A DNA stretch of 64,000 bases from an uncultured Spirochaetales bacterium (GTDB lineage Bacteria; Spirochaetota; Spirochaetia; DSM-27196; DATKUC01), in assembly GCA_964577375.1 (NCBI GenBank), contig CAZNYW010000017.1, forward strand, positions 887 through 64,886, given 5' to 3'. Of the stretch, positions 1-44,633 are shown piece by piece. The notes beneath the pieces were generated by a model. It had not been told where the DNA came from. It worked only from the letters and a program-made list of their open reading frames with translations, and ran no database searches. Made by a program: the position numbers and the translations under genes. Positions within the stretch are counted from its first letter, which is position 1. Every line of letters begins with the position of its first letter.

Positions 1-1259
1 ACGCCGACATTCTCGAGAGCCCGGTCGTCGTGGTCGAAGGGAGCTCACGCGTAACCGACATCCTCGAGGTATTGAGCGGGCGGGTCAAAAAGAACGAGCT
101 GATATCCAACACCATGTTCGACCTTCTGTTCTGCGAGGGCTGCATTGCCGGCCCGATGATGCCGAACGATCTCACCTTCTACGAACGCAAAAAGTACATC
201 ATCGATTACATGAAGAAGCGGCCACTCGTCGATGACATGGACGAGTGGGTGCGCCTGCACAACGAGTATCTTTCCATCGACCTCGGCAAGAAATTCTGTC
301 CGGCGATTCCTCAGGAAGTCGAGGTGCCGGAGTCGGAAATCAAGCGGATACTCGCGCTTACCGGGAAGCTGAAGCCGGAGGATGAGCTGAACTGCCGGGC
401 GTGCGGTTATTCCTCCTGCAGGGACAAGGCTGTAGCGGTCTACCGCGGCATCGCGGAAGTCGAGATGTGTCTGCCCTACCTGATTTCGAAGCTTGAGGTG
501 ACGATCACGGATCTGAAGGACAACCAGCTCAAGCTCATTCAAGCAGAGAAGCTCGCGTCGATGGGGCAGATGGCTGCAGGCATTGCGCACGAGATCAACA
601 ATCCGCTCGGCGTGGTACTGATGTACGCGCATCTCCTGAAGGATGCGGTCGACCTGCACGAGGAAAGCTCTTCCGACGTCTCGCGCATCATTCACGAAGC
701 GGAGCGGGCGCGGCAGATCGTTCGCGGGATCCTCAACTTCGCGCGCAAGGAGCAGCTCGTGCGCGAACCGACCAACATCAACGCCCTGCTGAGGCGGTCG
801 GCCGAATCCTTCGGTGCGCGGGCGGCGGAGATCGACTTCCGTTTCGAGCTCGACGACGATCTCGCGCAGCACGCGGTGGATCCCGATCAGCTTCGGCAGG
901 TGTTCGACAACATCATTTCGAACGCGGTCGAAGCAACCTCGGGCCGCGGACTCATCGAGATTCGAAGTGAAGAGAGCGTCGGCGGCTTTCACGTCGTGAT
1001 CGGCGATTCCGGTCCCGGTATCGCCGCCGATGTACTGCCGAAACTGTTCACTCCGTTTTACACCACGAAACCTCCCGGAAAGGGGACGGGCCTGGGGCTC
1101 GCGGTGTGTTATGGAATCGTGAAAATGCACGGAGGGACGATTCAGGCAGGCAACAGGCCGGAGGGAGGCGCGTCCTTCGACATCTTCATCAAGGATCCGG
1201 AAAAAGCGACACCGGATGACCGGCCGTCTTCCACGACGAAAACTGCGGTTTCGGGGTAA
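1..1259 (+). CDS. Sensor histidine kinase, 5' end outside the window; Cys-rich Fe-S / [FeFe]-hydrogenase-like sensory module fused to HisKA + HATPase_c
   Basis: The frame is open from nt 3, with no stop upstream of the listed GTG at 30, so the gene is cut by the window edge. FCEGC (nt 132-143) and CxxCx4Cx16C (nt 393-470, RnfB-type putative Fe-S motif) come first. They are followed by H-box AHEINNPL, N-box NIISNAVEA and G-boxes DSGPGI / GTGLGLAV. Confidence 0.8.
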   Translation, partial: ADILESPVVVVEGSSRVTDILEVLSGRVKKNELISNTMFDLLFCEGCIAGPMMPNDLTFYERKKYIIDYMKKRPLVDDMDEWVRLHNEYLSIDLGKKFCPAIPQEVEVPESEIKRILALTGKLKPEDELNCRACGYSSCRDKAVAVYRGIAEVEMCLPYLISKLEVTITDLKDNQLKLIQAEKLASMGQMAAGIAHEINNPLGVVLMYAHLLKDAVDLHEESSSDVSRIIHEAERARQIVRGILNFARKEQLVREPTNINALLRRSAESFGARAAEIDFRFELDDDLAQHAVDPDQLRQVFDNIISNAVEATSGRGLIEIRSEESVGGFHVVIGDSGPGIAADVLPKLFTPFYTTKPPGKGTGLGLAVCYGIVKMHGGTIQAGNRPEGGASFDIFIKDPEKATPDDRPSSTTKTAVSG

Positions 1260-1289
1260 CGCTTCCATGTCGGGATAGTGCGGGTGACG

Positions 1290-2768
1290 ATGCAGAGCGA
1301 TCCGGTGAAACCCGATTCAGAAACAATGTCAGTCCTCGTGGTTGACGACGAAGATGGCATGCGCGAAGGAATGCGCAGAATCCTCGGACGAGTCGGCTAC
1401 CACGTCGCCGTTGCCGACGGCGGGGTCGAGGCGATCCGGATGATCGATTCCGGACAGTACGACCTTGCTCTCATCGATCTGCGGATGCCGGAGATCGACG
1501 GATTTGCAGTCACCGACTACATTGCTCGTCGGCCCGGCAACAAAACAATCGTGGTCATTGTATCCGCTCTTGCGACGGTCGAGGCCGCCGTCGAAACGAC
1601 GAGGAAAGGGGCCTTCGATTTCCTGGTGAAACCGTTTGCACCGGCGGATCTGCTTTCGGTTGTCGAACGGGCAGGGCGTCAGTGTCGCCTTCTCCAGGAG
1701 CATGAAAAGTACCTGGTCGAGCTCGACGGGGAGAGAAGCCTGTCGCGCTCACTCATCAACTCCATGCGAGAGGGCGTGATCGTGTTCAACCTGCGTCAGG
1801 AGGTGGTTCTTCTCAACCCGCGGGCTGAGTTCTACCTCGGCACGCGATATCGGTCCGGCATGACCTCCGGCGACCTCGGTTTCGATCCAGGGTTTCCCGA
1901 CATGGTTCGCGGCGTCCTTTCCGGTGACTCCGGCGAAAAGCTGCTCGATCAGGAGATCGGGGAGCAGCGCGTTCGGACACGGATTACTCCCTACGTCCGC
2001 GGCCAGGAGGTCGGCGGCGCCATTGTTCTTCTTCACGATTTTACCGAGGAATGGCGCGCCGAGCAGGACAAGAACCGGTTTGTATCGATGGTGGCCCACG
2101 AGCTGCGCGGTCCGCTTGCGGCGATTCTGAACTACCTCAACCTGATCCTCGATCACTCGGTCGACGACGAACCGGAACGGGTTCGCGAGCTTCTCGAGCG
2201 CAGCAGGAAGCGCGGAGAGGCGCTTCTCGAGCTCGTCGGCGACCTTCTGTTTCTGAACAAACGCAATGCAGGCAAAGCAGAAAAGTCACTCGAAATACTC
2301 GATCTTTCGGAAGTGCTCACGGATGAGGTTGCGTTTGTCGAAGGCCACGCCCAGCGGGCAAACGTTACTGTACGATACGCGGCTCAGGAGGAAAGCTTTC
2401 CGTTCCTCGCAGACCGCGGCGATCTGGATCGCATATTCCTCAACCTGATGTTCAACGGCATAAAGTACAACCGGCCGGGCGGTTCGCTTTCGATAACGAT
2501 CCGGCGGACCGACGACGGACACTGGTTCGAAGTATCGTTCCGTGACACGGGAATCGGAATGACCGACGAAGAGATGAAAAATCTCTTCCAGGATTTCTTT
2601 CGCGTGCTCAACAGCAAGACAAAATCGATACCCGGAACCGGCCTCGGGCTGTCGACCGCAAAGAGAGTACTCTCCGAATACAACGGGCGGATCACCGTCG
2701 AGTCAAAACCCGATGAGGGCTCGACCTTCACGGTGCTGCTGCCGACGAGGGATTCTCTCAATGGCTGA
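1290..2768 (+). CDS. Hybrid sensor: response-regulator receiver + PAS + HisKA/HATPase_c histidine kinase
   Basis: Receiver signature VLVVDDEDG...LALIDLRMPEIDGF...LVKPF. PAS-like SLINSMREGVIVFN. H-box VAHELRGPL. N/G boxes NLMFNGIKYN, DTGIGM, GTGLGLS. Start is uncertain (GTG 1278, ATG 1290 or ATG 1326). Confidence 0.85.
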   Translation: MQSDPVKPDSETMSVLVVDDEDGMREGMRRILGRVGYHVAVADGGVEAIRMIDSGQYDLALIDLRMPEIDGFAVTDYIARRPGNKTIVVIVSALATVEAAVETTRKGAFDFLVKPFAPADLLSVVERAGRQCRLLQEHEKYLVELDGERSLSRSLINSMREGVIVFNLRQEVVLLNPRAEFYLGTRYRSGMTSGDLGFDPGFPDMVRGVLSGDSGEKLLDQEIGEQRVRTRITPYVRGQEVGGAIVLLHDFTEEWRAEQDKNRFVSMVAHELRGPLAAILNYLNLILDHSVDDEPERVRELLERSRKRGEALLELVGDLLFLNKRNAGKAEKSLEILDLSEVLTDEVAFVEGHAQRANVTVRYAAQEESFPFLADRGDLDRIFLNLMFNGIKYNRPGGSLSITIRRTDDGHWFEVSFRDTGIGMTDEEMKNLFQDFFRVLNSKTKSIPGTGLGLSTAKRVLSEYNGRITVESKPDEGSTFTVLLPTRDSLNG

Positions 2769-5175
2769 TCGGGGAGAGAATCCGGGTTCGCCGCAGAGCG
2801 AGTTCATGCGGCTTCTTTCTCACCAGATGAAGGCTCCTGTGCACGCGGTCCAGGCGCTGCTCCAGTCCATCTTCGACGCTCACAGTCAGGAGGTCCCTGC
2901 GTCGGTGAAGGATGCTCTCGAGCGCGCAATCTCCCGTGCCGGGGAAGCGGGTCGTATCGTCGACGACCTGCTCGAGTATCAGTCCTACGAGAGCGGCAGG
3001 AAGAAGGATCACCGGGATTTTGATGTCGTCGGTCTGGTGTCCGACCTTGGTCTCCGGTTTTCTCTCGGCGCGGCAGCGAAGGAGGTTAGCATCGATGTCG
3101 CGCTTCCCGAGAACCTGGCGGTCTTCGTTACCGGCGTGAGAACGGGAGTCGAGCACGCAATTCGGAACCTCATCGACAATGCCGTCAAGTATTCACCGCC
3201 TCTCGGCCGGGTGGAGATCGCGGTCGTGCTCGACGAATCGGAAAAGCGTGTACGAATCTCAGTGAGCGATGCCGGCGCCGGAATCCCGAAGACGGAGATC
3301 GAGCAGCTGTTCACGCCGTTCTTCCGCTCGAAGTCGCACGTGGCGAACACAGGCGGGACAGGCCTCGGCCTTGCGCTGACGGCGAGAATTGTCGAGGCGC
3401 ACAACGGAACGGTCCAGGTATCGTCGGAGGAGGGGAAGGGGACTACCTTCACGGTCACGCTTCCGGCTGAAAGGATAGAGCGGCTGCCTGACCGCCGTGT
3501 GCGTCGACGCAGAGTGGTCATCGTCGGCGGGGTGACATCCGGACCGAAGGCCGCGTCGAGGCTTCGTCGCCTTTCCGAAGATCTCGATATCACGATCGTG
3601 GAGCGCAACGAATTCCTTTCCTATTCGGGCTGCCAGCTTCCCTTCTTCATCCGCGATTCGATCGCGCACGATAGACTCCCTTCTCAGGCCGAGCGTCCTG
3701 CAGTCTCCTCTCACGGGACTCGTACCGCGCACTTCTTTGATGCCATGAAGAACATCACAGTGCTGAATCTAACCTCTGCCGATGAGATCGACCGTAAATC
3801 GAAAAGCCTTCGTGTGAAGCGGAGGAAGGATGGGTCGATTTTCCACGTTCCGTATGACGTTCTGATTCTCGCGACGGGCTCGGTTCCGGTCGTGCCGTCG
3901 GTTCCCGGCGGCGCGGAGGACCTCGTGTTCCCGCTGCACAGCCTCGAGGATGCGAAACGCATCACCGAGCGGCTCGGACGTGAGAACGCGCAGGACGTTA
4001 TCATCGTTGGCGGCGGACTCATCGGCGTGTCGGTCATAGAGGCTTTGGTGGCAACAGGGGCGCGGGTCACGCTGGTCGAGCGTGAATTGAACATCCTCAG
4101 CACATATTTCGATCCCGATTTTGCCGGAAAGATCGAGAACGAGCTCACGCGAAAGGGCGTGAAGGTCGCCACCGGTACTGCGATCACGTCGGTGTCACCG
4201 GTTGAAGGCGGTGTCGTCGCCCATTCGCCGGACCGTACATTCAGAGGTGATTTCGTCATCCTCAGCAGCGGCATGCGTCCGAACACTGATCTCGCCCGCG
4301 CAGCCGGGCTTGCTCTCGGGGAGACCGGGGGAATACAGGTCGACGAAGAGTTGCGCACGAGCGATCCGGACATCTTTGCGGTGGGAGACTGCGCGGAAAC
4401 GCGTCACCTGCTTACGGGACGCCACGAGTACTGGCCGCTCGGTGCCATTTCGATGAAGATGGGGCACATAGCAGCCGATGTCGTGGCCGGCAAGCGCGCC
4501 GTCTACCCCGGGTCGCTCGGCTCGGTTCTTCTCGGCTGCGTAGACCAGCAGTTCGGTCGAACCGGAGTCACCTCCGCGAGTGCGAGGTCGGCCGGGTTCG
4601 ACCCTGTCTCTTTCGTCCTCGCGGGGCCGGAGAGGCCGGGCTACGCTGCAGCGTCGACCGACATCTTCCTCAAAGTCATTGCCGATCGCCCGACACGGCG
4701 CATCATCGGCGTACAGGCTTTCGGCACCGGCGACGTCGGATCGAAGGTCTCCCTCTTTGCCACGGCAATTGCGAACGGGGTGACCACCGAGGGGATGTTT
4801 GTGCTCGATCTCGGTCACGCGCCGGAGTTCAACCATCCCATCGACATCGTCCAGGCCGCCTGCATGATGCTGAACAACAAGATGGACGGCCTCATCGAGA
4901 CGATTTCGGTTTCCGAGTTCGAGCGCGGCCGCGGCGGCCTTACCGCGGCGGCCATCGTCACGCCCGACCTGTCGTTACGGTATCTCATACCGGGGAGCGT
5001 CGAGATCACGCCGGAAAATCTGCGAAGGGAACACCTCCCCTTCGGGGAGCAGGAGCAGGTAATGCTCTACAGCCGGACATCAATGGAAGCCTACCAGGCG
5101 TATCGGTACCTCGTGCAGCGCGGGTATTCCGGCGTTCGCGTTCTCGAGGGTGGTTCTCTCTTCTGGTCGGAATAG
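2761..5175 (+). CDS. Histidine kinase fused to a CoA-disulfide-reductase/NADH-oxidase-type FAD oxidoreductase and a C-terminal rhodanese-like domain
   Basis: H-box LLSHQMKAP and G-boxes DAGAGI / GTGLGLAL. Then GxGxxG VVIVGGVTSGPKAA, redox Cys motif SYSGCQLPF (Cys at nt 3631-3633), a second dinucleotide fold IIVGGGLIGVS and AVGDCA. The C-terminal rhodanese-like fold is ...VMLYSRTSMEAY...VLEGG. ATG 2761 overlaps the upstream stop (2768). Confidence 0.8.
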   Translation: MADRGENPGSPQSEFMRLLSHQMKAPVHAVQALLQSIFDAHSQEVPASVKDALERAISRAGEAGRIVDDLLEYQSYESGRKKDHRDFDVVGLVSDLGLRFSLGAAAKEVSIDVALPENLAVFVTGVRTGVEHAIRNLIDNAVKYSPPLGRVEIAVVLDESEKRVRISVSDAGAGIPKTEIEQLFTPFFRSKSHVANTGGTGLGLALTARIVEAHNGTVQVSSEEGKGTTFTVTLPAERIERLPDRRVRRRRVVIVGGVTSGPKAASRLRRLSEDLDITIVERNEFLSYSGCQLPFFIRDSIAHDRLPSQAERPAVSSHGTRTAHFFDAMKNITVLNLTSADEIDRKSKSLRVKRRKDGSIFHVPYDVLILATGSVPVVPSVPGGAEDLVFPLHSLEDAKRITERLGRENAQDVIIVGGGLIGVSVIEALVATGARVTLVERELNILSTYFDPDFAGKIENELTRKGVKVATGTAITSVSPVEGGVVAHSPDRTFRGDFVILSSGMRPNTDLARAAGLALGETGGIQVDEELRTSDPDIFAVGDCAETRHLLTGRHEYWPLGAISMKMGHIAADVVAGKRAVYPGSLGSVLLGCVDQQFGRTGVTSASARSAGFDPVSFVLAGPERPGYAAASTDIFLKVIADRPTRRIIGVQAFGTGDVGSKVSLFATAIANGVTTEGMFVLDLGHAPEFNHPIDIVQAACMMLNNKMDGLIETISVSEFERGRGGLTAAAIVTPDLSLRYLIPGSVEITPENLRREHLPFGEQEQVMLYSRTSMEAYQAYRYLVQRGYSGVRVLEGGSLFWSE

Positions 5176-5240
5176 CGCCAGGTGGCAGTGCCGTGCTGGT
5201 GTCGCGTCAGATCATTAACTGTTCTCTATTGCATTAGTGC

Positions 5241-5269
5241 TTGCAAGTCCGCGAATCTTGGTGTACGAT
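5241..5269 (+). promoter_or_regulatory. Candidate sigma70-type promoter for the hox operon (TTGCAA-N17-TACGAT)
   Basis: Lies in the only AT-rich patch of the 185-nt gap between the kinase gene and hoxF. Hexamers read directly from the sequence. Confidence 0.4.
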
Positions 5270-5307
5270 AATAATATACGGATAAAATTTTCCGCATATG
5301 TCTCACC

Positions 5308-5332
5308 CCATCCGGCAGCAACAGCCGGATGG
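5308..5332 (+). promoter_or_regulatory. Perfect 9-bp inverted repeat CCATCCGGC-N7-GCCGGATGG in the hoxF leader
   Basis: Arms 5308-5316 and 5324-5332 are exact reverse complements. The repeat sits between the candidate promoter and the GGAGG Shine-Dalgarno (5349-5353). Function unknown (operator or RNA hairpin). Confidence 0.5.
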
Positions 5333-5360
5333 AGCAAACCAGTGCCACGGAGGTTGAGAC

Positions 5361-7172
5361 ATGGGGAGTCCCATCCAGCGGAGTGCGGAAACAGTCTGCG
5401 CTCAGCGCCACAACGACCGAACCCGCCTTATGGACATCGTCAGAGCTCTCCACGCCGAACACGGCTTCATGGACGACGACGCTATCGAGACCGTCGCCGC
5501 CCGGCTGGGCGTTCATCGCGTGGAAGTCGAGAGCATGCTGACGTTCTACTCGTTCTTCTCGCGGAAAAAACGGGGAAAACTTGTCATTCGGCTCTGCAAC
5601 GACGTCATCGACCGGATGAACGGGGCCGACCTGGTTGCCGATGCATTCCGGGAGCAGCTGGGCATCGATTTCGGGGAGACCACCCCCGACGGCAGAATCA
5701 CGCTCGAGCACACGCCGTGCATCGGGATGAGCGATCAGGCTCCTGCCGCTCTGGTGAACGACGAGGTGGTGACCTATCTTTCGACCGACCGCGTCAAGGA
5801 GATCGTAGCGATTCTCCGGCACACGGATGATGCGCACAAACTGGTCCATCGGCTCGGCGACGGGCAGAATGCGCACGATCTCATTCGCTCCATGGTGCAC
5901 AACAACGTTCGTCGCAGAGGTGAGGTCATATTCGGCTCGCACGAGGCAAACAACACCGGCCTCGCGAAGGCACTCGTGATGAGCCCGGTGGAAGTCATAA
6001 ACGAAATCAAGACCGCCCGCCTGCGGGGTCGCGGTGGGGCCGGCTTCCCGACGGGCCTCAAGTGGGAGTTCACACGCGGCGCCGAAGGCGAAAAGAAATA
6101 CGTCATCTGCAACAGCGACGAGGGCGAGCCGGGTACGTTCAAGGATCGAGTGCTTCTTACCGAGTTTCCCGATCGGATACTCGAAGGGATGACGATCGCC
6201 GGCTACGCGATAGGGGCGCAGATGGGACTGCTCTACCTTCGCGGTGAGTATGCATACCTGTATCGATACCTGGCAACGGTGCTCGAGGAGAGGCGGTCCA
6301 ACGGCCTCCTCGGCACGAACATCATGGGAAAGGATTTCTCCTTTGACGTTCGAATCGAGCTGGGGGCGGGAGCCTACATATGTGGCGAGGAGACCGCGCT
6401 GATAAGCTCGCTCGAAGGCACTGCCGGCCTGCCCAAGACGAAACCGCCGTTCCCGGCGCAGGAGGGATTTCTCAGCCGACCGACCGCCGTAAACAATGTT
6501 GAGACACTCTGCGTCGTTCCCGACATTCTCGACCGCGGCGCCGCCTGGTTCGCCGGGATCGGATCGAAGAACAGCTCCGGAACGAAGCTCCTGAGCGTAG
6601 CGGGAGATTGCGCGCGGCCCGGTATCTACGAGTATCCCTTCGGTGTGACCGTCGCCCAGATCCTCAAGGATACCGGGGCCGAGGATACCTACGCGGTACA
6701 GGTCGGCGGCGCATCGGGCCAGATGATCAACGAGACGGACTTCCGGCGCTCGATCTCTTACGAGGATCTTGCAACCGGCGGTTCCGTCATGATCTTCGAT
6801 CGTACCCGTGACATCCTCGACGCGGTGAAGAGCTTCATGGAGTTCTTCGTCGACGAGAACTGCGGATACTGCACGCCGTGCAGGGCGGGAAACCGCCTGA
6901 TGCTCGCCATCCTCGACCGCATCATCAAGGGCAATGGCGCGCCGGAAGACCTTGACACGTTGAAACGCATCGGCAACTCGGTGAAGATTGCCAGTCGCTG
7001 CGGGCTCGGGCAGACCTCGCCCAATCCCATCCTCAGTTCGATCGAAAAATTCGCTCCGGCTTACGAGAAGCTGATGAAGAAGAGCGGGGCGCTGCGGGCC
7101 TCTTTCGACATCGAGAGCGCACTGGCAGAGTCGTCGAAGATATCAGGGCGCCGTTCGACGGTCCTGTCCTGA
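5361..7172 (+). CDS. hoxF: NAD-reducing [NiFe] hydrogenase diaphorase subunit HoxF (NuoE-like domain + NuoF-like FMN/NADH/[4Fe-4S] module)
   Basis: GRGGAGFPTGLKW (FMN/NADH site), SRCGLGQT and CGYCTPCR cluster motifs. N-terminal thioredoxin-like NuoE-type region. GGAGG lies 7 nt upstream of the ATG. Confidence 0.9.
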   Translation: MGSPIQRSAETVCAQRHNDRTRLMDIVRALHAEHGFMDDDAIETVAARLGVHRVEVESMLTFYSFFSRKKRGKLVIRLCNDVIDRMNGADLVADAFREQLGIDFGETTPDGRITLEHTPCIGMSDQAPAALVNDEVVTYLSTDRVKEIVAILRHTDDAHKLVHRLGDGQNAHDLIRSMVHNNVRRRGEVIFGSHEANNTGLAKALVMSPVEVINEIKTARLRGRGGAGFPTGLKWEFTRGAEGEKKYVICNSDEGEPGTFKDRVLLTEFPDRILEGMTIAGYAIGAQMGLLYLRGEYAYLYRYLATVLEERRSNGLLGTNIMGKDFSFDVRIELGAGAYICGEETALISSLEGTAGLPKTKPPFPAQEGFLSRPTAVNNVETLCVVPDILDRGAAWFAGIGSKNSSGTKLLSVAGDCARPGIYEYPFGVTVAQILKDTGAEDTYAVQVGGASGQMINETDFRRSISYEDLATGGSVMIFDRTRDILDAVKSFMEFFVDENCGYCTPCRAGNRLMLAILDRIIKGNGAPEDLDTLKRIGNSVKIASRCGLGQTSPNPILSSIEKFAPAYEKLMKKSGALRASFDIESALAESSKISGRRSTVLS

Positions 7173-7192
7173 ACGAATAGAGGGAGACACGT

Positions 7193-7906
7193 ATGGCGGA
7201 CACCTTTACGTTCAATATTGACGGCACGGAAGTCACGGGCGCTCCGGGTCAGACCATAATGGAAGCGGCGGACGAGGCGGGCGTCTACATTCCGCGCCTC
7301 TGCACGATGAAGGGACTCAAGACCCTCGGAAGCTGCCGGGTTTGTACGGTCCTTGTCGACGGCCGGCCACAGGCCGCCTGCACGCAGCCGGCTGCTGCGG
7401 GAATCAACGTCGACAACGATACCGAGAAGCTCAACGCAATTCGACGCGACATCATCGAGTTGCTCTTCGTGGAGGGCAATCACTTCTGCATGTTCTGCGA
7501 GAAAAGCGGCAACTGCGAGCTGCAGGCGGCCGCGTATCGGCTCGGGATAGCGGCGCCCGAACTGCCCTATCTCTATCCCAAACGAGAAATCGACGCGACT
7601 CACCCGGAGGTTCTGATAGAACGGAACCGGTGCATTCTGTGCGGCCGGTGCGTCACCTCCTCCGAATACGCCGACGGTAAACATGTGTTCGATTTTGTCG
7701 GCAGAGGTTCCGATCGCAGGATTGCGGTCGATTCCCGGGGCGACCTCTCTGACACCAGTCTGAAGTCGACCGACAGGGCGGTGGAGGTGTGTCCCGTCGG
7801 CGCAATTCTCAAGAAGGGAACGGCGTACGCGACGCCGATCGGACGGCGGACATACGATGCGCAGCCGATCGGGGCCGACATCGAGGAGCGAGGAGGACGA
7901 ACATGA
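7193..7906 (+). CDS. hoxU: NAD-reducing hydrogenase diaphorase Fe-S subunit HoxU (NuoG N-terminal-like)
   Basis: 2Fe-2S ferredoxin motif CTMKGLKTLGSCRVC...C, His/Cys cluster HFCMFCEKSGNCELQ and 4Fe-4S motif CILCGRCV. The stop overlaps the hoxY ATG (ATGA at 7903-7906). Confidence 0.9.
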   Translation: MADTFTFNIDGTEVTGAPGQTIMEAADEAGVYIPRLCTMKGLKTLGSCRVCTVLVDGRPQAACTQPAAAGINVDNDTEKLNAIRRDIIELLFVEGNHFCMFCEKSGNCELQAAAYRLGIAAPELPYLYPKREIDATHPEVLIERNRCILCGRCVTSSEYADGKHVFDFVGRGSDRRIAVDSRGDLSDTSLKSTDRAVEVCPVGAILKKGTAYATPIGRRTYDAQPIGADIEERGGRT

Positions 7907-8448
7907 GCAAACCGAAGGTGGCGACTGCTTCGCTCGCCGGCTGTTTTGGCTGTCACATGTCCCTGCTCGACATAGACGAACGGATACTGCAGCTAATCGA
8001 CCTGGTTGATTTCGACAAATCGCCCATCGACGACATCAAGGAGTTCACCGGCCGCTGCCAGATCGGCCTTATCGAGGGTGGCTGCACCACCGACGAGAAT
8101 GTCCGTGTGCTCAAAAGCTTTCGTGAGCACTGCGACATCCTCATCTCGGTCGGGGACTGTGCTACCATGGGCGGTTTGCCTGCGCTTCGCAACACAGTTC
8201 CGCTGCGGGAATGTCTGGAAGAGGCCTATTTGAACGGTCCGACGGTCTACAACCCTGAGAAGAAGATACCGGGAGATCCGGAAATCCCGTTGATGCTCGA
8301 CAGGGTCTATCCCTGTCACGAAGTGGTAAAGATCGATTATTTCCTCCCCGGCTGCCCTCCCTCGGCTGACACGCTGTGGGAAGCGTTGACCGCACTTCTC
8401 AGTGATAAACCCGTGAAGCTGCCCTACTCACTGCTCAAGTACGATTGA
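7903..8448 (+). CDS. hoxY: [NiFe] hydrogenase small subunit, group-3 type (HoxY)
   Basis: Internal ATG of listed ORF 7789-8448. MSKPKVATASLAGCFGCHMS, GDCATMGG and PGCPP motifs typical of short cytoplasmic small subunits. Confidence 0.9.
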   Translation: MSKPKVATASLAGCFGCHMSLLDIDERILQLIDLVDFDKSPIDDIKEFTGRCQIGLIEGGCTTDENVRVLKSFREHCDILISVGDCATMGGLPALRNTVPLRECLEEAYLNGPTVYNPEKKIPGDPEIPLMLDRVYPCHEVVKIDYFLPGCPPSADTLWEALTALLSDKPVKLPYSLLKYD

Positions 8449-8467
8449 GCGGAAGGAGAAACAGACC

Positions 8468-9913
8468 ATGGCCCAGGAAGGTACTGCTTACAAGCGCGTC
8501 GTTATCGAACCGGTCACGAGGATCGAAGGACACGGCAAGGTCTCGCTTCTGCTCGACGAGTCGGGCGGCATACATCAGGCCCGATTCCACGTTGTCGAGT
8601 TCCGCGGATTCGAACGCTTCGTGCAGGGGCGCCCATACTGGGAAGCTCCCGTGCTGGTGCAGCGACTCTGTGGAATCTGCCCGGTGAGTCACCACCTCGC
8701 CGCGGCGAAAGCGATGGACCGAATTGTGGGCGCGGACAAGCTCACACCGACGGCGGAAAAGATGCGACGGCTGATGCACTACGGTCAGTTCTTTCAGTCG
8801 CATTCGCTGCACTTCTTCCACCTCGTTTCACCCGACCTCCTGTTCGGGTTCGAAGCGGATCCCGCGATCCGCAACGTCATCGGGGTGGCGAGAAAGTATC
8901 CCGACCTCGCCGTCCAGGGCGTCATGATGCGCAAGTTCGGACAGGAGATCATCAAGGCGACCGCCGGAAAGAAGATACACGGCACCGGGGCAATCCCGGG
9001 AGGCATAAACAAGAATCTTTCGATAGAGGAACGGGACTTTCTGTTGAAGGATATCGACCAGATGATCGAATGGTCGCGCGGCGCCGTGAAAATTGCCCGC
9101 GACTACACTGCCGAGAACGCGTCGCGGCTCGGCGAGTTCGCTGCCTTCGACTCGAATCACCTGTCTATAGTCCGTCCCGACGGGGCGCTCGAGATATACG
9201 ACGGTGAGCTGCGCGCGATCAGCGCCGACGGAAAGACGATCTTTGATCACGTGGACTGTCAGACCTTCCCGGAGTACCTTGCCGAAGAGGTTCGCGACTG
9301 GTCCTACATGAAGTTTCCGTTCATCCGGTCGCTCGGACCCGAGAAAGGGTGGTATCGCGTCGGGCCGCTTGCACGCGTCAACAACTGCAGCTTCATCGAC
9401 ACGCCCGAGGCCGAGGCTGCCAGAAAGGAATTCTACAAAACGCTCGGAGAAGGGCCATGCAACCTCACGATGGCTTATCACTGGGCGCGAATGATCGAGA
9501 CGCTGCACGCCGCTGAAAAGATTCGCGAACTGCTCAACGACAGCGACCTGCAGGGCAAGGACCTGACGGTGAAAGGCAAGCGGCGCAAAGTCGGTATCGG
9601 CGTGATCGAAGCGCCGCGCGGGACGCTCTTTCACTATTACGAGGTGGACAAGAACGACCAGATCGTGAGAGCGAATCTGATTGTCTCGACGACGAACAAC
9701 AACGAACCGATCAACAGGGCGGTCGCCGACGTGGCCGAGAAGGACCTCGCAGGCAAGGAGCTGACCGAAGGGCTTCTGAACCATATCGAGGTAGCGATTC
9801 GCGCATACGACCCCTGCCTTTCGTGTGCTACGCACGCGATGGGGCAGATGCCGCTTCTGGTGGAGCTCTACGATTCGAACAACCAGCTTCTCGACAGGAA
9901 GACCAAGGATTGA
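8468..9913 (+). CDS. hoxH: [NiFe] hydrogenase large subunit (HoxH)
   Basis: RIEGHG, N-terminal RLCGICPVSH and C-terminal DPCLSCATH Ni-Fe ligand motifs. A 24-aa C-terminal extension after the His matches a protease-processed precursor. Confidence 0.95.
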   Translation: MAQEGTAYKRVVIEPVTRIEGHGKVSLLLDESGGIHQARFHVVEFRGFERFVQGRPYWEAPVLVQRLCGICPVSHHLAAAKAMDRIVGADKLTPTAEKMRRLMHYGQFFQSHSLHFFHLVSPDLLFGFEADPAIRNVIGVARKYPDLAVQGVMMRKFGQEIIKATAGKKIHGTGAIPGGINKNLSIEERDFLLKDIDQMIEWSRGAVKIARDYTAENASRLGEFAAFDSNHLSIVRPDGALEIYDGELRAISADGKTIFDHVDCQTFPEYLAEEVRDWSYMKFPFIRSLGPEKGWYRVGPLARVNNCSFIDTPEAEAARKEFYKTLGEGPCNLTMAYHWARMIETLHAAEKIRELLNDSDLQGKDLTVKGKRRKVGIGVIEAPRGTLFHYYEVDKNDQIVRANLIVSTTNNNEPINRAVADVAEKDLAGKELTEGLLNHIEVAIRAYDPCLSCATHAMGQMPLLVELYDSNNQLLDRKTKD

Positions 9914-10383
9914 CCGAAACTGCGGAGCAGACAGTTCTGGTACTCTGCTACGGCAATCCGGCGCGCGAGGACGACGGGCTCGGGCCGGCGGTCGCCGAGA
10001 TGCTGGCGTCGTCTCCCATGGCGGGGGCGAGAGTCGAATCCAACTATCAGCTTCTGGTCGAGGATGCGGTAGCCGTCTCGGAGGCGTCACTCGTCGTCTT
10101 TGTGGACGCTGCCGCGGCGGGACCTGAACCCTTCGAGTTTCGGACAATCGAACCGGGCGAGACCGGCGGGTACATGGCGCATAGCATTGGGCCGGCGCAG
10201 CTTCTCGGGCTTGCCCGCGAGTTGTTCGGCAGGTCGCCCGTGGCATACATGCTTGCGATCCGCGGGTACTCGTTCGAGATGTTCCACGAGGGGCTCTCGC
10301 GCCGGGCGTCCGAAAACCTCTCCCGCGCGACAGAATACCTGCGCGAGTTTGTGCGTGCGAGGGTTGTCGAGGAGGTAACATGA
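9910..10383 (+). CDS. hoxW: Hydrogenase maturation endopeptidase (HoxW/HycI family)
   Basis: VLVLCYGNPAREDDGLGPAV signature and position directly after hoxH. Start taken as TTG 9910, overlapping the hoxH stop; the start is uncertain. Confidence 0.8.
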   Translation: MTETAEQTVLVLCYGNPAREDDGLGPAVAEMLASSPMAGARVESNYQLLVEDAVAVSEASLVVFVDAAAAGPEPFEFRTIEPGETGGYMAHSIGPAQLLGLARELFGRSPVAYMLAIRGYSFEMFHEGLSRRASENLSRATEYLREFVRARVVEEVT

Positions 10384-10393
10384 GGAGGCAGCG

Positions 10394-10771
10394 ATGAGGG
10401 AGGGCAAGTTCGTTGTTCTGGCGATCGATGACGACGAGGACGTCTTGTATGCTCTTCGGATAGTGCTGGAAAAGAACGGCTACGTCATGTCCGAGGCCCA
10501 TTCGGCCGAAACTGGCGTTCGCTCTTTCAAGAATGAACGACCGGACTTCATCATAGTCGATCTGATGATGGAATCGATCGACGCGGGCAAGAACCTGGTG
10601 AAGGAACTGAAGTTCCTGGGCAATGAGGCTCCGGTGTACATGCTCTCTTCGGTCGGCGACGAGCTGTCGGGAAATGTCGACGTTCGGGAGCTCGGCCTTC
10701 AGGGAGTGTTCCAGAAGCCGATTAACAACGATGTTCTCCTCAAGACCCTGGAGCGGAAGCTTAAGAAGTAG
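10394..10771 (+). CDS. Single-domain response-regulator receiver (CheY-like), last gene of the hox operon
   Basis: VVLAIDDDED, phospho-acceptor context FIIVDLMM, and MLSS / FQKP conserved positions. 125 aa with no output domain. Confidence 0.85.
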   Translation: MREGKFVVLAIDDDEDVLYALRIVLEKNGYVMSEAHSAETGVRSFKNERPDFIIVDLMMESIDAGKNLVKELKFLGNEAPVYMLSSVGDELSGNVDVRELGLQGVFQKPINNDVLLKTLERKLKK

Positions 10772-11498
10772 CGATCAGCGCTTCGAGTGCCGGTGCGAGG
10801 AATGCTGCGAAACGTCCCTCGACGAGTTCCTCGGGCTTTCCAATTTCGTCTTCGATTTCGGGCGTGTAGGGGATCTTTCCGAGCAGCGTCAATCCTCGGT
10901 CCGGCGGCAGAGGTGTCGGAGTGGTCTGGTCGTCGCGTACCATGTTGAGGATGCATCCGGCCGGATGCACGCGCCCGGCGTTCAGCACCTCCGCAAGCCG
11001 CTCCATTATGCGAAGAGACAGGGTGGATGCGCTCGAGACCAGCGCCACCCGGACTCGCGGAACGTACCGTGAAACGTCGAGAATCGCTTCGCCGATTCCC
11101 GGCGGCATGTCGATGACGAGCAGATCCAGAGAGCCCCATACGACCACTGCGAGCAGTTCCCGGATAGCGTCGGTAACCGCGTCCCCACGAAGTGCGACCC
11201 CTCGCTCGCCGGTAAACGGGGTTATTCCCATGTAGCGCAGCCCGAAGGCGGCTTCGAACGGCAGGATGCCGCCCTCTTCCTGCGGAAGGTGGGGATCGAT
11301 ACCGAGGATGAGATGGGCAGATGCACCGTGGAAATCGAGATCGAGCAGGCCCACTTTGCGGCCCGCCTTCGCGAGCAGCAGCGCAGCAGTTGCCGAGCAG
11401 CAGCTCTTGCCGACGCCGCCTTTTCCGCTGGCAAAGGCGAGAATCGTCGTTACCGATTGCAGCCGGTGCTGGATGATGGAAACCCGGGGGTCGCTCAT
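10761..11498 (-). CDS. Mrp/MinD-family P-loop ATPase (ApbC/NBP35-like), probable [NiFe]-hydrogenase Ni-insertion partner of HypA
   Basis: Deviant Walker A ASGKGGVGKS. Internal ATG 11498 of listed ORF 10761-11576 forms ATGA with the hypA stop. The 3' end overlaps the convergent receiver gene by 11 nt. Confidence 0.75.
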   Translation of the reverse strand: MSDPRVSIIQHRLQSVTTILAFASGKGGVGKSCCSATAALLLAKAGRKVGLLDLDFHGASAHLILGIDPHLPQEEGGILPFEAAFGLRYMGITPFTGERGVALRGDAVTDAIRELLAVVVWGSLDLLVIDMPPGIGEAILDVSRYVPRVRVALVSSASTLSLRIMERLAEVLNAGRVHPAGCILNMVRDDQTTPTPLPPDRGLTLLGKIPYTPEIEDEIGKPEELVEGRFAAFLAPALEALIATS

Positions 11499-11923
11499 TG
11501 AGCCTCTTGCCTCGGTTGCGGCTCGTTGAGCTCTATCGACGCCAGCGTGATTCCCCGCCCCTTTGTGACCTGGCAATCGGCACTACTGCACGAGGGGCAG
11601 TGCACGAAGGCGTGCGCGGCCTCGGGAAGAAAATGGATAGCTTCCCGGTGTTCATCGGTGAGGCCGTCCACTTGGTCGAATCCCCACTGATGGCCGCAGA
11701 CATTGCACCTGAAGCGAACGGGCTCGACAATGATGCGGACGGCATCGCGATCGTGCGGAACGTCGTCGAGCATGGTGGCAAGACCGTCCTCGAAAATCCC
11801 GCGGTCGATGTTCTGGAGCTCTCCGAAGACGAGGTTTACGGCGTGAAGTGTCGCGCCGGAATGGCCCGCCATTTCGTTTCTGATCGTCGCCGCGACGGAT
11901 TCGGCAAGTGCCCATTCGTGCAT
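11495..11923 (-). CDS. hypA: Hydrogenase nickel incorporation protein HypA
   Basis: Canonical N-terminus MHEWALAES (Ni-binding MHE) and zinc motifs CNVC...CPSC. Internal ATG of listed ORF 11495-11995. Confidence 0.9.
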   Translation of the reverse strand: MHEWALAESVAATIRNEMAGHSGATLHAVNLVFGELQNIDRGIFEDGLATMLDDVPHDRDAVRIIVEPVRFRCNVCGHQWGFDQVDGLTDEHREAIHFLPEAAHAFVHCPSCSSADCQVTKGRGITLASIELNEPQPRQEAQ

Positions 11924-12013
11924 GGAGCTATAGTAGCTCCTATTGCAGACAAGGGAAAGTGCGGATAGCATTGAATCGGCCAACAGTAGCATCATCTTAG
12001 CGGAAGGTTTCCC

Positions 12014-28753: not shown

Positions 28754-29914
28754 ATGCGCAGTATCAAGCTCTCCGAGTTGAAAGCCGGAATGAGATTCGA
28801 TCAACCAGTCTACATCGACGGGGTGAACCTTCTGGTGCCCGAAGACGTCCCGATAAAGGAAAAGGACCTTGAGCGGCTCCGTCGATGGAACATCGACGAG
28901 GTGAGCACCGATGGAAAGGTGGTCGACCCCGGCGGAAGGGACGACTCGACAAGCGTGATAGGCGGAACAACGGTCGCGCCGGGTCAGCATCAGGTGATGG
29001 GAGTTTACTCGAAGCTGGCAACCCGCCTTGCCGGGATCCACTCCTCGGTGAAGCGGCAGCAGGACGTTGATTCGTCGGATATTGACGCGGTGGTCGATAC
29101 CCTTTTTGCCTCGCTTCGCACGGACAAGAACGACATGATTCAGTACATCCTGTATGGCCTGCAGGGTGAGTCCGGCTTCGTGGAAAATGCGCTCAACTGT
29201 GCCGTTCTTGCGACCCTGGTCGGCATGAACATGAACATGGTTCAGCACAAGCTGCTGCATCTGGCGACGGGAGCGCTTCTGCACGACATAGGGATGCTGA
29301 GGCTGCCGGACGCGATCGTCTCCAAGCGGGGCGAGCTCACGCGTGAAGAGCGGCAGACTATTGCGACGCATCCGATACACTCCTACAAGATCATAACGCG
29401 TGAGATGAAGTTCCCCGATGAAATCGGTATCGTCGCCCTGCAGCACCAGGAAAGGTGGGACGGCGAAGGTTATCCGAAGGGACTTTCCGGGAAGGATATA
29501 GCGCTGCCGGCACGCATAGTTGCGGTTGCGGACTCATTCGAGGCGATGGTCAGCAAACGCCCCTATCGCAATTCCATGATCGGCTACGCTGCGATGCGGG
29601 CGATCCTTTCGGACAATGCGCGGCGGTTCGATCCGGCCGTGCTGAAGTCCTTTATCCGTACAATGGGGATCTATCCGATCGGGAGCGTTGTGCTGCTCAG
29701 CAATTCGTGCGTCGGGCGGGTCATTGAAACGAACCCGGAATCTCCACTGCGTCCCCAGATCAAGATCATGATCGACGATGTCGGCAGGGAGTACCGCAAG
29801 GATGAGGGAGAGGTGATCGACCTTATGCACGAAAAGAAGGTGTTCATTGCCCGGGCAGTCGATCCCAAGGAGAAAAGCGAAGCGTCCGCCGGGGGAGCCG
29901 GAAACAACGGTTGA
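28754..29914 (+). CDS. HD-GYP domain protein (probable c-di-GMP phosphodiesterase)
   Basis: HDIGM and HP..SY motifs, and HQERWDGEGYPKG (GYP motif). Confidence 0.9.
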   Translation: MRSIKLSELKAGMRFDQPVYIDGVNLLVPEDVPIKEKDLERLRRWNIDEVSTDGKVVDPGGRDDSTSVIGGTTVAPGQHQVMGVYSKLATRLAGIHSSVKRQQDVDSSDIDAVVDTLFASLRTDKNDMIQYILYGLQGESGFVENALNCAVLATLVGMNMNMVQHKLLHLATGALLHDIGMLRLPDAIVSKRGELTREERQTIATHPIHSYKIITREMKFPDEIGIVALQHQERWDGEGYPKGLSGKDIALPARIVAVADSFEAMVSKRPYRNSMIGYAAMRAILSDNARRFDPAVLKSFIRTMGIYPIGSVVLLSNSCVGRVIETNPESPLRPQIKIMIDDVGREYRKDEGEVIDLMHEKKVFIARAVDPKEKSEASAGGAGNNG

Positions 29915-35248: not shown

Positions 35249-36121
35249 TTACCGGAAGAGCTGCAGTACCGACTGCGGTTTCTGGTTCGCCTGGGCGAGC
35301 ATTGCAGTCGATGCCTGGACGAGGATCTGATCCTTGACGAACTGGACCATCGCATGAGCCATGTCGGTGTCGCGGATTCGCGACTCGGCTGCCTGGAGGT
35401 TTTCAGCGCCGACCGCGAGACCCTTGCGGGCGTACCCGAGACGGTTCTGATAGGCGCCCAGGTCCGCACGCTGCTTGTTGACGATCTTCAAGGCCTTGTC
35501 GAGGACGCCGATGGAAGCGTTGGCCTTGTCGGGAGTCGAAAGGGAGATGAAGCTTGCGGTGTGGGGGAGGCCATTGGTGCTCTGGATACCGAGGCCCTGC
35601 GCGGTCATCGTTCCGATGTAGACGCGGATGCGCTGGTCCATGTTCGCGCCGATGTGGAACCACATGCTGGCGGTGACGACGTTCACGCCGGTGTCCCGGG
35701 CGAAACGGCCGGTCAGCAGGTTCATGCCGTTGAACTGGGCGTGGGACGCGATCCGGTTGACCTCGTTGACGAGCTGGGAAACTTCGACCTGGATTTGCAT
35801 GCGGTCTTCACTGGTGTAGATACCGTTCGAAGACTGTACGGCAAGCTCACGAATCCGCTGAATGATGTCTTCACTCTCCTGGAGGTATCCTTCAGTGGTC
35901 TGGATGAGCGAAATGCCGTCCGCTGCGTTCATCTCGGCGCGGTTGAGTCCACGGATCTGAGCACGCATCTTTTCGGAAACCGCCAGACCGGAGGCGTCGT
36001 CTCCCGCCCGGTTGATCCGCATTCCCGAGGACAGCTTCTCGATGTCCTTGTTCAGCCGCAGGTTGTTGAACTTGAGCTGCCTGTCGGCAAACATGGCGCT
36101 CAGGTTGTGGTTGATTACCAT
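35249..36121 (-). CDS. flaB: Flagellar filament core protein FlaB (spirochaetal periplasmic flagellin)
   Basis: [10 protein letters not shown]...[19 protein letters not shown]-terminus, [14 protein letters not shown] core block and C-terminal [23 protein letters not shown] Shine-Dalgarno. Internal ATG (codon 215) of listed ORF 35249-36763. Confidence 0.97.
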
Positions 36122-36159
36122 ACAATCCTCCTTGATTGTACCGTACGTGGGACGTGTTG

Positions 36160-36226
36160 CGTCGAACTTCCGTGTTCGACGACCCTCTTCCCCCCCCCTA
36201 CGGGGGGAGTCTCCGGACAGGAGACT
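36160..36226 (-). promoter_or_regulatory. Structured flaB 5' leader: three adjacent perfect hairpins
   Basis: Plus-strand coordinates. CGTCGAAC/GTTCGACG at 36160-36181; C6/G6 within 36190-36207; AGTCTCC-ggaca-GGAGACT at 36208-36226. All read directly. Confidence 0.5.
36190..36198. repeat. Homopolymeric C9 (G9 on the flaB-sense strand) tract in the flaB/tpk intergenic region
   Basis: Nine consecutive C residues read directly. This is the longest G/C homopolymer I noticed in the window. Confidence 0.9.
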
Positions 36227-36331
36227 TCTACATTGATTGTCGACACGGTGAAAATCGGCTTGAGCTTTTTTTTGCAGTGCGTGCTGGTCAGTCTTTGCAA
36301 AGCGGGGGAAATGGCCTAATCTCATCCGCAT

Positions 36332-36955
36332 ATGCGCGGTATCCTTTTCACCGGCGGTGAATGTCCCAGATTCGAGCTCGTGAGACAGTGGCTGACCGAC
36401 GGCTGCATCATAGTCGCCGCGGATTCGGGTTATGATAGCGTGCGTGAATATGGGCTGGCGCCGGCCCTCGTCGTCGGTGACATGGATTCGATCCGGGACC
36501 GCGACGCAGTGATGCGGCTTCCGGAGGAAAAGCGGCGGATCTATCCGGCGGAAAAAGACGATACCGACACCGAGCTGGGACTTGCAGCATTGCGCGACCT
36601 GGGTGCGGATGAGATCGTTGTGGTCGGGGGCGGCGGCGGGCGTCTCGATCACCTGCTCGGGATTGTGGCTCTTTTCAGCCGGCCGGCCGGACCGCTGGTA
36701 TGGCTGCTGCCCGGGAACGAGGTGCACCGGATCGAAGGCCGGTGGGCATTGCGGGTGGACCACGGGGAGACGCTCTCCTTTTTTCCGGCTTCGGATGGAC
36801 CGTGCCGGATGCGGAGCACCGGGCTGAAATGGCCCCTGGACGGGCTGACCTGGCGGACCGGATCGGTTGGAATCAGCAACGTCGCCACGAGGGATGAGGT
36901 GACGGTGGAGATGCTGAGCGGCCGGTTGATCATGGTCAGATCAACACAGGAGTAA
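36332..36955 (+). CDS. Thiamine pyrophosphokinase
   Basis: [15 protein letters not shown] and [12 protein letters not shown] motifs, with a C-terminal thiamine-binding beta domain. Confidence 0.85.
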
Positions 36956-44386: not shown

Positions 44387-44613
44387 GCGGCAATCACCTT
44401 TCCGTCCGGATGAACGGACGCGAAGTCACGGCACTCTATCTGCTGCTGCGACGGGAAGAGGACAGACTCGACGAGGAGCTGCTTTCTCTCCTTGGCCGCA
44501 TCGAAGAGATGCTCTTTTCGAGACTTTCGATCGACGAGATGGAGCGTATCGACGATCTGTACCGGAGCGGAGTGAACGTGTTCGACGCCGGAGACGACGT
44601 CTCCCCGGCGTGA
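44383..44613 (+). CDS. Hypothetical 76-aa acidic protein, translationally coupled to the MBL-fold gene
   Basis: ATGA overlap with the upstream stop. No recognisable motif. Confidence 0.45.
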   Translation: MSGNHLSVRMNGREVTALYLLLRREEDRLDEELLSLLGRIEEMLFSRLSIDEMERIDDLYRSGVNVFDAGDDVSPA

Positions 44614-44633
44614 ACAGAATCCGGAGAAAACCA

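Follow-up and report, generated by a model that had tools for sequence, protein, structure and literature searches.

The 64,000-nt stretch of DNA analysed here (hereafter the window) comes from an uncultured Spirochaetales bacterium (contig CAZNYW010000017.1, assembly GCA_964577375.1). It opens with three co-directional histidine kinase genes, which we denote K1, K2 and K3, followed by hoxFUYHW, the operon of an NAD-linked [NiFe] hydrogenase, and by a gene for a receiver-only response regulator of 125 amino acids, which we denote REC. Comparison with related loci (designated L plus a number) shows that the three kinases are two separable modules, K1–K2 and K3, rather than a fixed triad, and REC closes hox operons of this type as a gene conserved across phyla. 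Here, we describe the domain content and conserved residues of these proteins, their neighbourhoods in other assemblies and the region upstream of hoxF, and consider how the locus might function.

Table 1. Features of the K1–K2–K3–hoxFUYHW–REC locus, other genes of the window and genes of related loci. Coordinates refer to the window unless a locus is named.
Feature	Coordinates	Strand	Basis or description
K1, 3′ part	1-1259	+	Pfam, full-length protein P0122, H-domain alignment, motif statistics
K2	1290-2768	+	Pfam, NCBIfam, VicK/ThkA alignments, synteny
K3	2761-5175	+	Pfam, NCBIfam, family alignment, 6PFZ alignment
Putative sigma-70-type hox promoter	5240-5269	+	CTTGCA, 18-nt spacer, TACGAT preceded by GGTG; cross-locus conservation
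Palindrome, 26 nt, candidate operator	5274-5299		ATATACGGA-N8-TCCGCATAT; directly after putative -10
Structured hoxF leader	5296-5363	+	AUGUCUCA and UGAGACAU form a closing helix that covers the hoxF start codon and encloses an inner hairpin
hoxFUYHW, NAD-linked [NiFe] hydrogenase	5361-10383	+	Pfam, PF27537 HoxH on identical protein, TIGR00072
hoxF	5361-7172	+	Pfam
hoxU	7193-7906	+	Pfam
hoxY	7903-8448	+	Pfam
hoxH	8468-9913	+	Pfam, PF27537
hoxW-type maturation protease	9910-10383	+	TIGR00072
REC, receiver-only response regulator	10394-10771	+	Pfam, orthologues after hoxW, invariant columns
Gene pair of hypA and its neighbour, a ParA/NUBPL-type NTPase gene	10761-11576, 11495-11995	-	
Stand-alone HD_5 protein	28754-29914		
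Flagellin	35249-36763	-	
1,496-amino-acid protein	44208-48698		
Radical-SAM ORF	61656-64000		
Membrane kinase beside hox–REC	L113:3042-4511		
Membrane kinase beside hox–REC	L124:483-2417		
Membrane kinase beside hox–REC	L165:2144-3676		
Membrane kinase beside hox–REC	L168:13021-14475	-	
Membrane kinase beside hox–REC	L173:10424-11845	-	
Contig with both hydrogenase types	L104:2213-17584		

The K1 open reading frame (ORF), called at 3-1259, is open at the window edge, and only the last 418 residues of the protein lie inside the window; alternative starts are available for K2 (GTG at 1278) and K3 (ATG at 2713). The 8-nt overlap between K2 and K3 that the initial annotation reported holds with the ATG at 2761. 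The same start is used in P0001, a database entry identical to K3, and is consistent with the alignment of homologues. Successive kinase genes are separated by no more than 30 nt or overlap, and 10 nt separate hoxW from REC. HisKA and HATPase_c domains score above the Pfam cut-offs in all three kinases, with a phospho-accepting His and the N, G1 and G2 boxes present; the H-boxes AHEINNPL, AHELRGPL and SHQMKAP can be read in the K1, K2 and K3 translations, as can GTGLGL. The highest 19-residue Kyte–Doolittle means are 1.45 for K1, 1.6 for K2 (in a receiver strand) and 2.3 for K3 (in the GGGLIG Rossmann strand); as hydropathy gives no membrane segment, we rejected membrane anchoring of any of the three. 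ORF calls, Pfam and hydropathy therefore agree with the initial description of three co-directional soluble histidine kinases upstream of hox, and Pfam bears out its domain calls and its count of three transmitters and two receivers, with the PAS match of K2 and the rhodanese match of K3 falling below threshold and being backed by structure alignments.

Within HoxF, a thioredoxin-like 2Fe-2S domain of the NuoE/HoxE-like kind is fused N-terminally to the NuoF-like part, and thus no separate hoxE gene is present. Together, HoxF (NuoE/F-like), HoxU (NuoG-like), HoxY, HoxH and the endopeptidase make up, by Pfam and NCBIfam, the complete set expected of a group 3d Hox hydrogenase, a placement that reflects subunit content rather than a phylogeny of subgroups. 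The window encodes one [NiFe] large subunit and one small subunit only, and group 2b sensor subunits are not present. Scanning about 40 further ORFs of the window, a set that excluded a few short ORFs, revealed no DNA-binding regulator and neither a Sigma54_activat nor a helix–turn–helix (HTH) regulator. The classical HoxBC–HoxJ–HoxA circuit is accordingly absent, with no NtrC-type regulator among the scanned ORFs, and the earlier statement that the window lacks a DNA-binding output domain holds for the same set.

Full-length K1 is represented by the 677-amino-acid database protein P0122, the final 418 residues of which (approximately residues 260–677) are identical to K1 of the window. P0122 adds two 4Fe-4S motifs and the remainder of the hydrogenase H-domain. 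The complete order, found in P0122 and in an 82% identical relative at L003, is two 4Fe-4S motifs, an [FeFe]-hydrogenase H-domain, a Cx2Cx4Cx16C motif and the kinase core; the window covers the end of the H-domain with its FCEGC cluster motif, then Cx2Cx4Cx16C, HisKA and HATPase_c. Pfam identified FeS (PF04060, E = 4.8e-10), HisKA and HATPase_c in this part and matched the H-domain (PF02906) on full-length K1 relatives; the match to TIGR04105 has an E value of 1e-53 and yet lies below the cut-off. No PAS domain was matched by Pfam after the Fe-S motif, and HisKA follows directly.

Alignment of K1 with the solved hydrogenases 7QV7, 7P5H and 8A6T (E values of 1e-22 to 1e-26) places its SSPCP, GPCVGKK and FCEGC sequences on the TSCCP, MPCxxKK and CPxGC motifs of solved [FeFe] hydrogenases. 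All four cysteines that ligate the H-cluster (C300, C355, C499 and C503 in CpI) are kept, as is Lys358. Relative to CpI, the proton-relay residue C299 is replaced with Pro, M353 with Gly and M497 with Leu, and the L3 motif reads CxGC, one residue shorter than the CxxGC of catalytic enzymes. The motifs are present in nearly all homologues: S[ST]PCP occurs in 114 of 119 K1 homologues, GPCxxKK in at least 111 of the 119 and the four-Cys motif in 118. Counts for the L3 motif and for the rhodanese loop of K3 are qualitative only, as the regular expressions used for them missed many sequences. The K1 family comprises more than 120 clusters at 59% identity or above, and those with a named source come from Spirochaetia or related spirochaetes.

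The putative sensory [FeFe] hydrogenases of groups C and D have been described as lacking C299, differing at M353 and M497 and carrying two clusters at the N terminus and the same four-Cys motif at the C terminus; M353 is Gly in Thermotoga HydS (PMC8163306). HydDB describes [FeFe] group C1 as ‘histidine kinase-linked (putative)’ with an undetermined role (PMC5037454); K1 was compared with this class at the level of its description rather than by phylogeny or the HydDB network. K1 displays the characteristic traits of the putative HydS-type sensory [FeFe] hydrogenases, here joined without a linker domain to a kinase core, and a non-classical H2 sensor is thus probably present in the locus. The original label of ‘Fe-S/hydrogenase-like’ was correct as to the Fe-S motifs and the H-domain and too general as to the type of hydrogenase, a putative H2-sensing one. 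Judged by its sequence, K1 is a variant architecture within a predicted, experimentally unproven class.

Every K1 locus examined has K2 as the first kinase gene to follow K1. Pfam assigns to it Response_reg, HisKA and HATPase_c domains and a weak PAS_8 match (16.5 bits against a cut-off of 21.8). The PAS-like stretch is covered by alignment to the PAS-containing kinases VicK (4I5S) and ThkA (3A0R), and residues 136–485 align to the NCBIfam PnpS/PhoR-like model.

K3 begins with HisKA (His21) and HATPase_c, continues with a flavoprotein that resembles FAD/NADH-dependent coenzyme A (CoA)-disulfide reductase (CoADR) and has Cys291 as its redox-active residue, and ends with a rhodanese-like domain. 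Pfam matches HisKA, HATPase_c, Pyr_redox_2 (E = 3e-57) and Pyr_redox_dim, whereas the Rhodanese match lies just below the cut-off (21.7 versus 22.2). The C-terminal 559 residues align end to end, up to the C terminus, with the CoADR–rhodanese type 6PFZ (E = 2.6e-89), and K3 also aligns with the solved structures 3ICR, 3NTD and 8A56; its score against the CoADR equivalog TIGR03385, 331 bits, is far below the cut-off of 578.8. In an alignment of 18 family members, His21, the ATP-binding boxes, G256/G257/G261, G417/G419, C291 (in SYSGCQLP) and G542/D543 are invariant. The NAD fold has a nearly invariant Glu440 where its second strand ends; in Rossmann folds, such a residue suggests a preference for NADH. 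The rhodanese-like domain noted initially is confirmed as a fold by the alignment to 6PFZ, and it has lost the catalytic Cys, which is replaced with Ser. Ser occupies this site in a spirochaete/Fibrobacterota clade and in most hox-linked members, and Cys is kept in a more distant clade.

The kinase–flavoprotein–rhodanese architecture of K3 is present in at least 120 full-length clusters, the named ones belonging to Spirochaetota and Fibrobacterota relatives, and a genome scan recovered it from bins labelled Spirochaetota, Planctomycetota, Verrucomicrobiota and Lentisphaerota, among others. Searches of the literature yielded no relevant account of a fusion between a kinase and CoA-disulfide reductase or Pyr_redox_2, and both this kinase–flavoprotein family and the operon joining hox to a receiver appear undescribed in the literature searched.

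REC matches PF00072 only. Its aspartate pocket is intact, with the DDD triplet (D12/D13/D14), D56 in VDLMME, S86 and K108 all invariant. The top 120 relatives are all single-domain proteins of 123–128 amino acids, and a Rosetta-stone search for fusion partners returned only single-domain proteins. A scan with the receiver alignment identified 80 metagenome loci with REC orthologues (55–100% identity), in which REC is preceded by hoxW and then by hoxH, hoxY, hoxU and hoxF wherever upstream DNA is present, with L158 and L173 as exceptions. The receiver was therefore not the incidental orphan that it had seemed to be from the window alone. About half of the long hox–REC loci have some kinase nearby. 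These include a multi-pass membrane histidine kinase with HYTGG..(N/S)P in its membrane part that recurs beside hox–REC operons (Table 1), which suggests that the kinase partner of the hox receiver varies with the lineage. The named proteins nearest to K3, to K1 of L003 and to REC are partial entries from Salinispira pacifica (77–88% identical), a fermentative H2 producer that encodes several [FeFe] hydrogenases (PMC4511686).

Related loci fall into several arrangements. The full order K1–K2–K3–hoxFUYHW–REC is found in the window and in L003 and L005, whose K3 proteins are 69–71% identical to that of the window. K1–K2–hoxFUYHW–REC without K3 occurs in L089/L090 and L097, and K3–hoxFUYHW–REC without K1 or K2 in L088 and L096. 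As each module occurs alone with hox and the two are combined only in the window and its close relatives, they are separable. A further arrangement, hydC–hydB–hydA–K1–REC–K2, with a K1 of around 60% identity and a receiver of 132–136 amino acids, is found in L091–93, L174 and L175, and was recovered from three unrelated assemblies; hydCBA encode a bifurcating [FeFe] hydrogenase. Wherever K1–K2 was sampled, its neighbours are thus structural genes of a hydrogenase: those of hox in the window, L003, L005, L089/L090 and L097, and hydCBA or hydBA, behind which it lies in L091–93, L104, L174 and L175. K3 homologues of 31–49% identity stand beside hox–REC in convergent or divergent orientation in seven further loci (L016, L018, L099, L104, L106, L115 and L156). 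Of the fused K3 loci recovered by the genome scan, 3 of 22 had hox within their flanks, as against none of 58 stand-alone CoADR–rhodanese loci (one-sided Fisher P of about 0.02, calculated by hand).

The gene order recurs in independent assemblies and is therefore not due to chance. Hydrogenase linkage of both modules is real, and that of K3 to hox is partial. The kinases are not placed at random in related genomes, the outcome that would have spoken against the link to hydrogenases proposed in the initial annotation, for K1–K2 keeps to hydrogenase genes and K3 homologues stand beside hox–REC in several lineages. Of the idea that the three kinases form one relay set, the linkage to hydrogenases stands and the unity of the set does not.

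The position of the free receiver differs between locus types. In hyd-linked loci it lies between K1 and K2; in hox-linked loci this gene is missing, and the only free receiver in hox-linked K1–K2 loci is the one after hoxW. Both receivers have the unusual D-L-M-M-E motif. This swap, together with the common motif, suggests that K1/K2 and K3 feed the hox receiver.

Three further neighbourhoods concern K3. A single contig of L104 (Table 1) carries hoxFUYHW–REC, a convergent K3 homologue, and hydB–hydA followed by a K1-like kinase and a receiver, so both hydrogenase types and both sensor types co-occur on it. In L019, L022 and L028, a set of small genes together with genes for proteins of 514–622 amino acids lies upstream or downstream of a distant K3 homologue and resembles an Mrp-antiporter or group-4 membrane hydrogenase module; this set was the only other recurrent neighbourhood when the neighbours of distant K3 homologues were clustered. 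HoxF/HoxU-like genes are also present near the K3 homologue of L028. Elsewhere, one K3 homologue has a different receiver and a PilZ protein as neighbours.

A 185-nt spacer separates K3 from hoxF. It contains a putative sigma-70-type promoter, the pattern of which, CTTGCG ... GGTGTA(C/A)(G/C)AT, recurs in L003, L005, L089 and L097 amid non-coding DNA that has diverged on either side. This promoter is below the threshold of a consensus scan, in which promoter and terminator sites were no more numerous than in shuffles, and we propose it from cross-locus conservation only. Directly downstream, a 26-nt palindrome occurs once in the window and in none of 100 shuffles. It is identical in L003 and L005, which have the full triad, and absent from L088, L089 and L097, which have K3 only or K1–K2 only, and is a candidate operator for a regulator encoded outside the window. 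The hoxF leader is predicted to form a closing helix over the start codon around an inner hairpin (minimum free energy of −31.3 kcal/mol, z = −3.9). In the consensus fold of five spirochaete hox loci, both closing arms are invariant and the inner hairpin shows compensatory changes; the leader has no Rfam match and may be a translational control element. The conserved promoter region and structured leader mean that co-transcription with the kinases is not implied; hox probably has its own promoter and a trans-acting DNA-binding regulator, and possibly translational control as well.

From the observed domain content, the intact catalytic and ligand residues and the conserved hydrogenase linkage, we infer the signals, phosphotransfer routes and output of the system as follows. 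The explanation we favour, which we hold to be probable though far from assured, is a hydrogenase-dedicated cytoplasmic two-component network in which two mobile sensor modules stand before hoxFUYHW–REC. In this network, K1 would autophosphorylate to a level set by H2 or by the redox state of its chain of clusters and would pass its phosphate to the receiver domain of K2, the free receiver or both, with K2 serving as a second kinase or phosphatase stage. K3 would act as a dimeric kinase modulated by the redox state of its FAD and Cys291, which in turn would be set by NADH/NAD+ and an oxidant such as CoA disulfide, persulfide or O2. The inputs of the modules would then match H2 and NAD(H), the two substrates on which Hox acts, and both modules would converge on the REC protein. 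Together, the K1 and K3 modules probably report hydrogen and NADH/thiol redox state to REC. As REC lacks an output domain, it must act through protein contacts, either with a regulator encoded elsewhere or with the enzyme itself.

Several observations weigh against this explanation. H2 sensing by the kinase-linked [FeFe] hydrogenases of group C is putative in the literature for the whole class, and no HydE, HydF or HydG maturase gene was found among the window ORFs scanned, so that K1 could carry [4Fe-4S] clusters only. Both points also favour the view that K1 does not sense H2, its H-domain holding Fe-S clusters only or an H-cluster without turnover, and instead responds, as Fe-S-based redox sensors do, to how reduced the ferredoxin pool is or to O2 exposure, in which case its hydrogenase linkage would amount to general redox control. 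The shortened L3 motif and the three extra Fe-S sites that flank the H-domain fit this view. An empty site would, however, not be expected to retain four H-cluster cysteines and Lys358 in at least 110 homologues; the loss of C299 and the change of M353 to Gly match enzymes shown to bind the H-cluster (PMC8163306), the K1 gene immediately follows hydA in genomes where maturases must be encoded, and Salinispira is reported to have several [FeFe] hydrogenases (PMC4511686). We therefore judge a K1 that is blind to H2 to be unlikely, if not negligibly so. For K3, the linkage itself is weaker: 19 of the 22 fused loci in the genome scan show no hox nearby, and, with most of the family so placed, K3-type kinases have other partners too. 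Its sensor follows the kinase core, an order that is unusual among sensor kinases and for which we know of no transmission mechanism. K3 might thus be an enzyme first, a reductase of the CoA-disulfide, persulfide or NADH oxidase type that its kinase regulates or to which the kinase is unrelated, with a position near hox that is secondary and arises through NADH metabolism; all flavoprotein catalytic motifs are intact, and similarity to the solved CoADR, NPSR and Nox enzymes is strong. Set against this are the Ser in the rhodanese site of the window and most hox-linked members, which counts against turnover of persulfide or CoA-persulfide, the invariance of the phospho-accepting His and the ATP-binding boxes, the repetition of hox–REC adjacency across phyla in three orientations, and the lack of hox near any of the 58 stand-alone CoADR–rhodanese loci. 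A primarily enzymatic K3 seems to us improbable.

The output of the network is likewise open to other readings. About half of the long hox–REC loci have no kinase within their flanks, the hyd-linked and hox-linked receivers are only around 33% identical, and the palindrome upstream of hoxF points to a DNA-binding regulator encoded elsewhere, all of which tell against the favoured explanation. REC might instead act, in the manner of CheY or another single-domain regulator, on motility, on second-messenger enzymes or on the Hox enzyme, giving H2 or redox taxis or post-translational control in place of control of hox expression. This would suit a receiver that lacks an output domain in all of its 120 closest relatives, the lack of a DNA-binding regulator among the ORFs scanned, the pairing of a K3 homologue with a receiver and a PilZ protein, the chemotaxis-linked sensory class C2 recognized by HydDB (PMC5037454) and the flagellin and HD-GYP-type genes of the window. 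The 10-nt gap between REC and hoxW, with which it shares an operon in many phyla, ties the receiver to the hydrogenase rather than to motility genes, however, and no che or fli gene adjoins REC; direct action on the Hox enzyme, moreover, would still be control of hox. We rate an output other than hox expression as rather unlikely. A more far-reaching proposal combines the two sensors with this last mode of action: an undescribed system in which a sensory [FeFe]-hydrogenase kinase and a flavoprotein disulfide-reductase kinase read H2 and NADH/thiol state, and REC acts directly on the [NiFe] enzyme or its maturation and not through a transcription factor. If true, one class of hydrogenase would control another with a post-translational output, but we consider this doubtful. 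That the adjacency of kinases and hox is a fortuitous gene order of one lineage could appeal to the confinement of the full triad to the window, L003 and L005, which are close relatives; it is contradicted by the neighbourhood data, in which each module recurs alone with hydrogenase genes in distant lineages and different orientations, and is scarcely credible.

The remainder of the window contains hyp genes and housekeeping genes, including those for RNase HII, SMC, Ffh, RNase III, the CCA-adding enzyme, flagellin and MreBCD/RodA. The neighbour of hypA is a ParA/NUBPL (Mrp/MinD-type) P-loop NTPase, not a canonical HypB; the 3′ end of its gene overlaps the REC gene convergently by 11 nt, and the pair is also present in L003 and L088. 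The stand-alone HD_5 protein is of the HD-GYP type and a possible cyclic-di-GMP phosphodiesterase. The flagellin ORF runs approximately 216 codons upstream of the Flagellin_N domain, and its true start is probably internal. In the 1,496-amino-acid protein, FlgD-Ig/CHU_C-like domains are repeated and an OmpA domain lies at the C terminus. The radical-SAM ORF at the end of the window was rejected as a HydEFG candidate: it carries Radical_SAM_N2 and DUF2344 and lacks HydE/G signatures.

All parts of the locus are known two-component and redox-enzyme domains, and its novelty lies in their combination and modular spread. K1, being fused to its kinase and having a defined neighbouring receiver and target operon, offers a minimal system for the open question of H2 sensing by group C. 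With the K3 family, the cytoplasmic sensors of NADH/thiol redox state would gain a new class. Many uncultured anaerobes have REC at the end of hoxFUYHW, a sign that control of bidirectional hydrogenases includes a widespread layer that is as yet unstudied; these enzymes are relevant to fermentative H2 balance and biohydrogen engineering.

Among known systems, K1 most resembles the HydS proteins of Thermotoga maritima (group C, M2f) and Thermoanaerobacter mathranii (group D, M2e), with which it shares the N-terminal 2×[4Fe-4S] region, all cluster cysteines, the loss of Cys299, the C-terminal Cx2Cx4Cx16C motif and a position beside hydrogenase structural genes, which in many K1 relatives are those of a bifurcating HydABC; Gly in place of M353 is a further likeness to the T. 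maritima protein. In contrast to M2f HydS, however, K1 lacks a PAS domain, its Fe-S motif leading straight into HisKA/HATPase_c so that sensor and kinase are one polypeptide. In K1, moreover, Cys299 is replaced with Pro and the L3 motif is one residue shorter, and in the lineage of the window the module stands before a [NiFe] group 3d operon rather than an [FeFe] one. With HoxBC–HoxJ–HoxA of Cupriavidus necator and HupUV–HupT–HupR, the locus has in common a slow hydrogenase-like sensor and a histidine kinase governing hydrogenase genes. Here, however, the sensor is of the [FeFe] type and fused to its kinase, group 2b genes and an NtrC-type DNA-binding regulator are lacking, and the only local receivers are the receiver–kinase K2 and the stand-alone REC.

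K3 shares the FAD/NADH Rossmann motifs, the single redox-active Cys, the dimerization domain and the C-terminal rhodanese fold of CoADR–rhodanese, NADH-dependent persulfide reductase and CoA-persulfide reductase (3ICR/3ICS, 3NTD, 8A56 and 6PFZ), from which it differs in its N-terminal histidine kinase core of around 245 residues and the Cys-to-Ser change in the rhodanese site. Coupling of a cofactor or of cysteine redox chemistry to histidine kinase output, as proposed for K3, is known from NifL, MmoS (FAD-PAS) and RegB/ArcB. In these systems, however, the sensor is an N-terminal PAS-flavin or a membrane quinone site, whereas in K3 the kinase core is followed by an entire class-I pyridine-nucleotide disulfide oxidoreductase that serves as the putative sensor. 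RedCDEF of Myxococcus and LovK–LovR likewise combine several kinases with receiver-only proteins and have no DNA-binding domain, an arrangement that implies phosphate flow between receivers and output through protein–protein contacts. The window shares only generic two-component domains with these systems; its inputs are redox cofactor modules and its genes are tied to hydrogenase operons.

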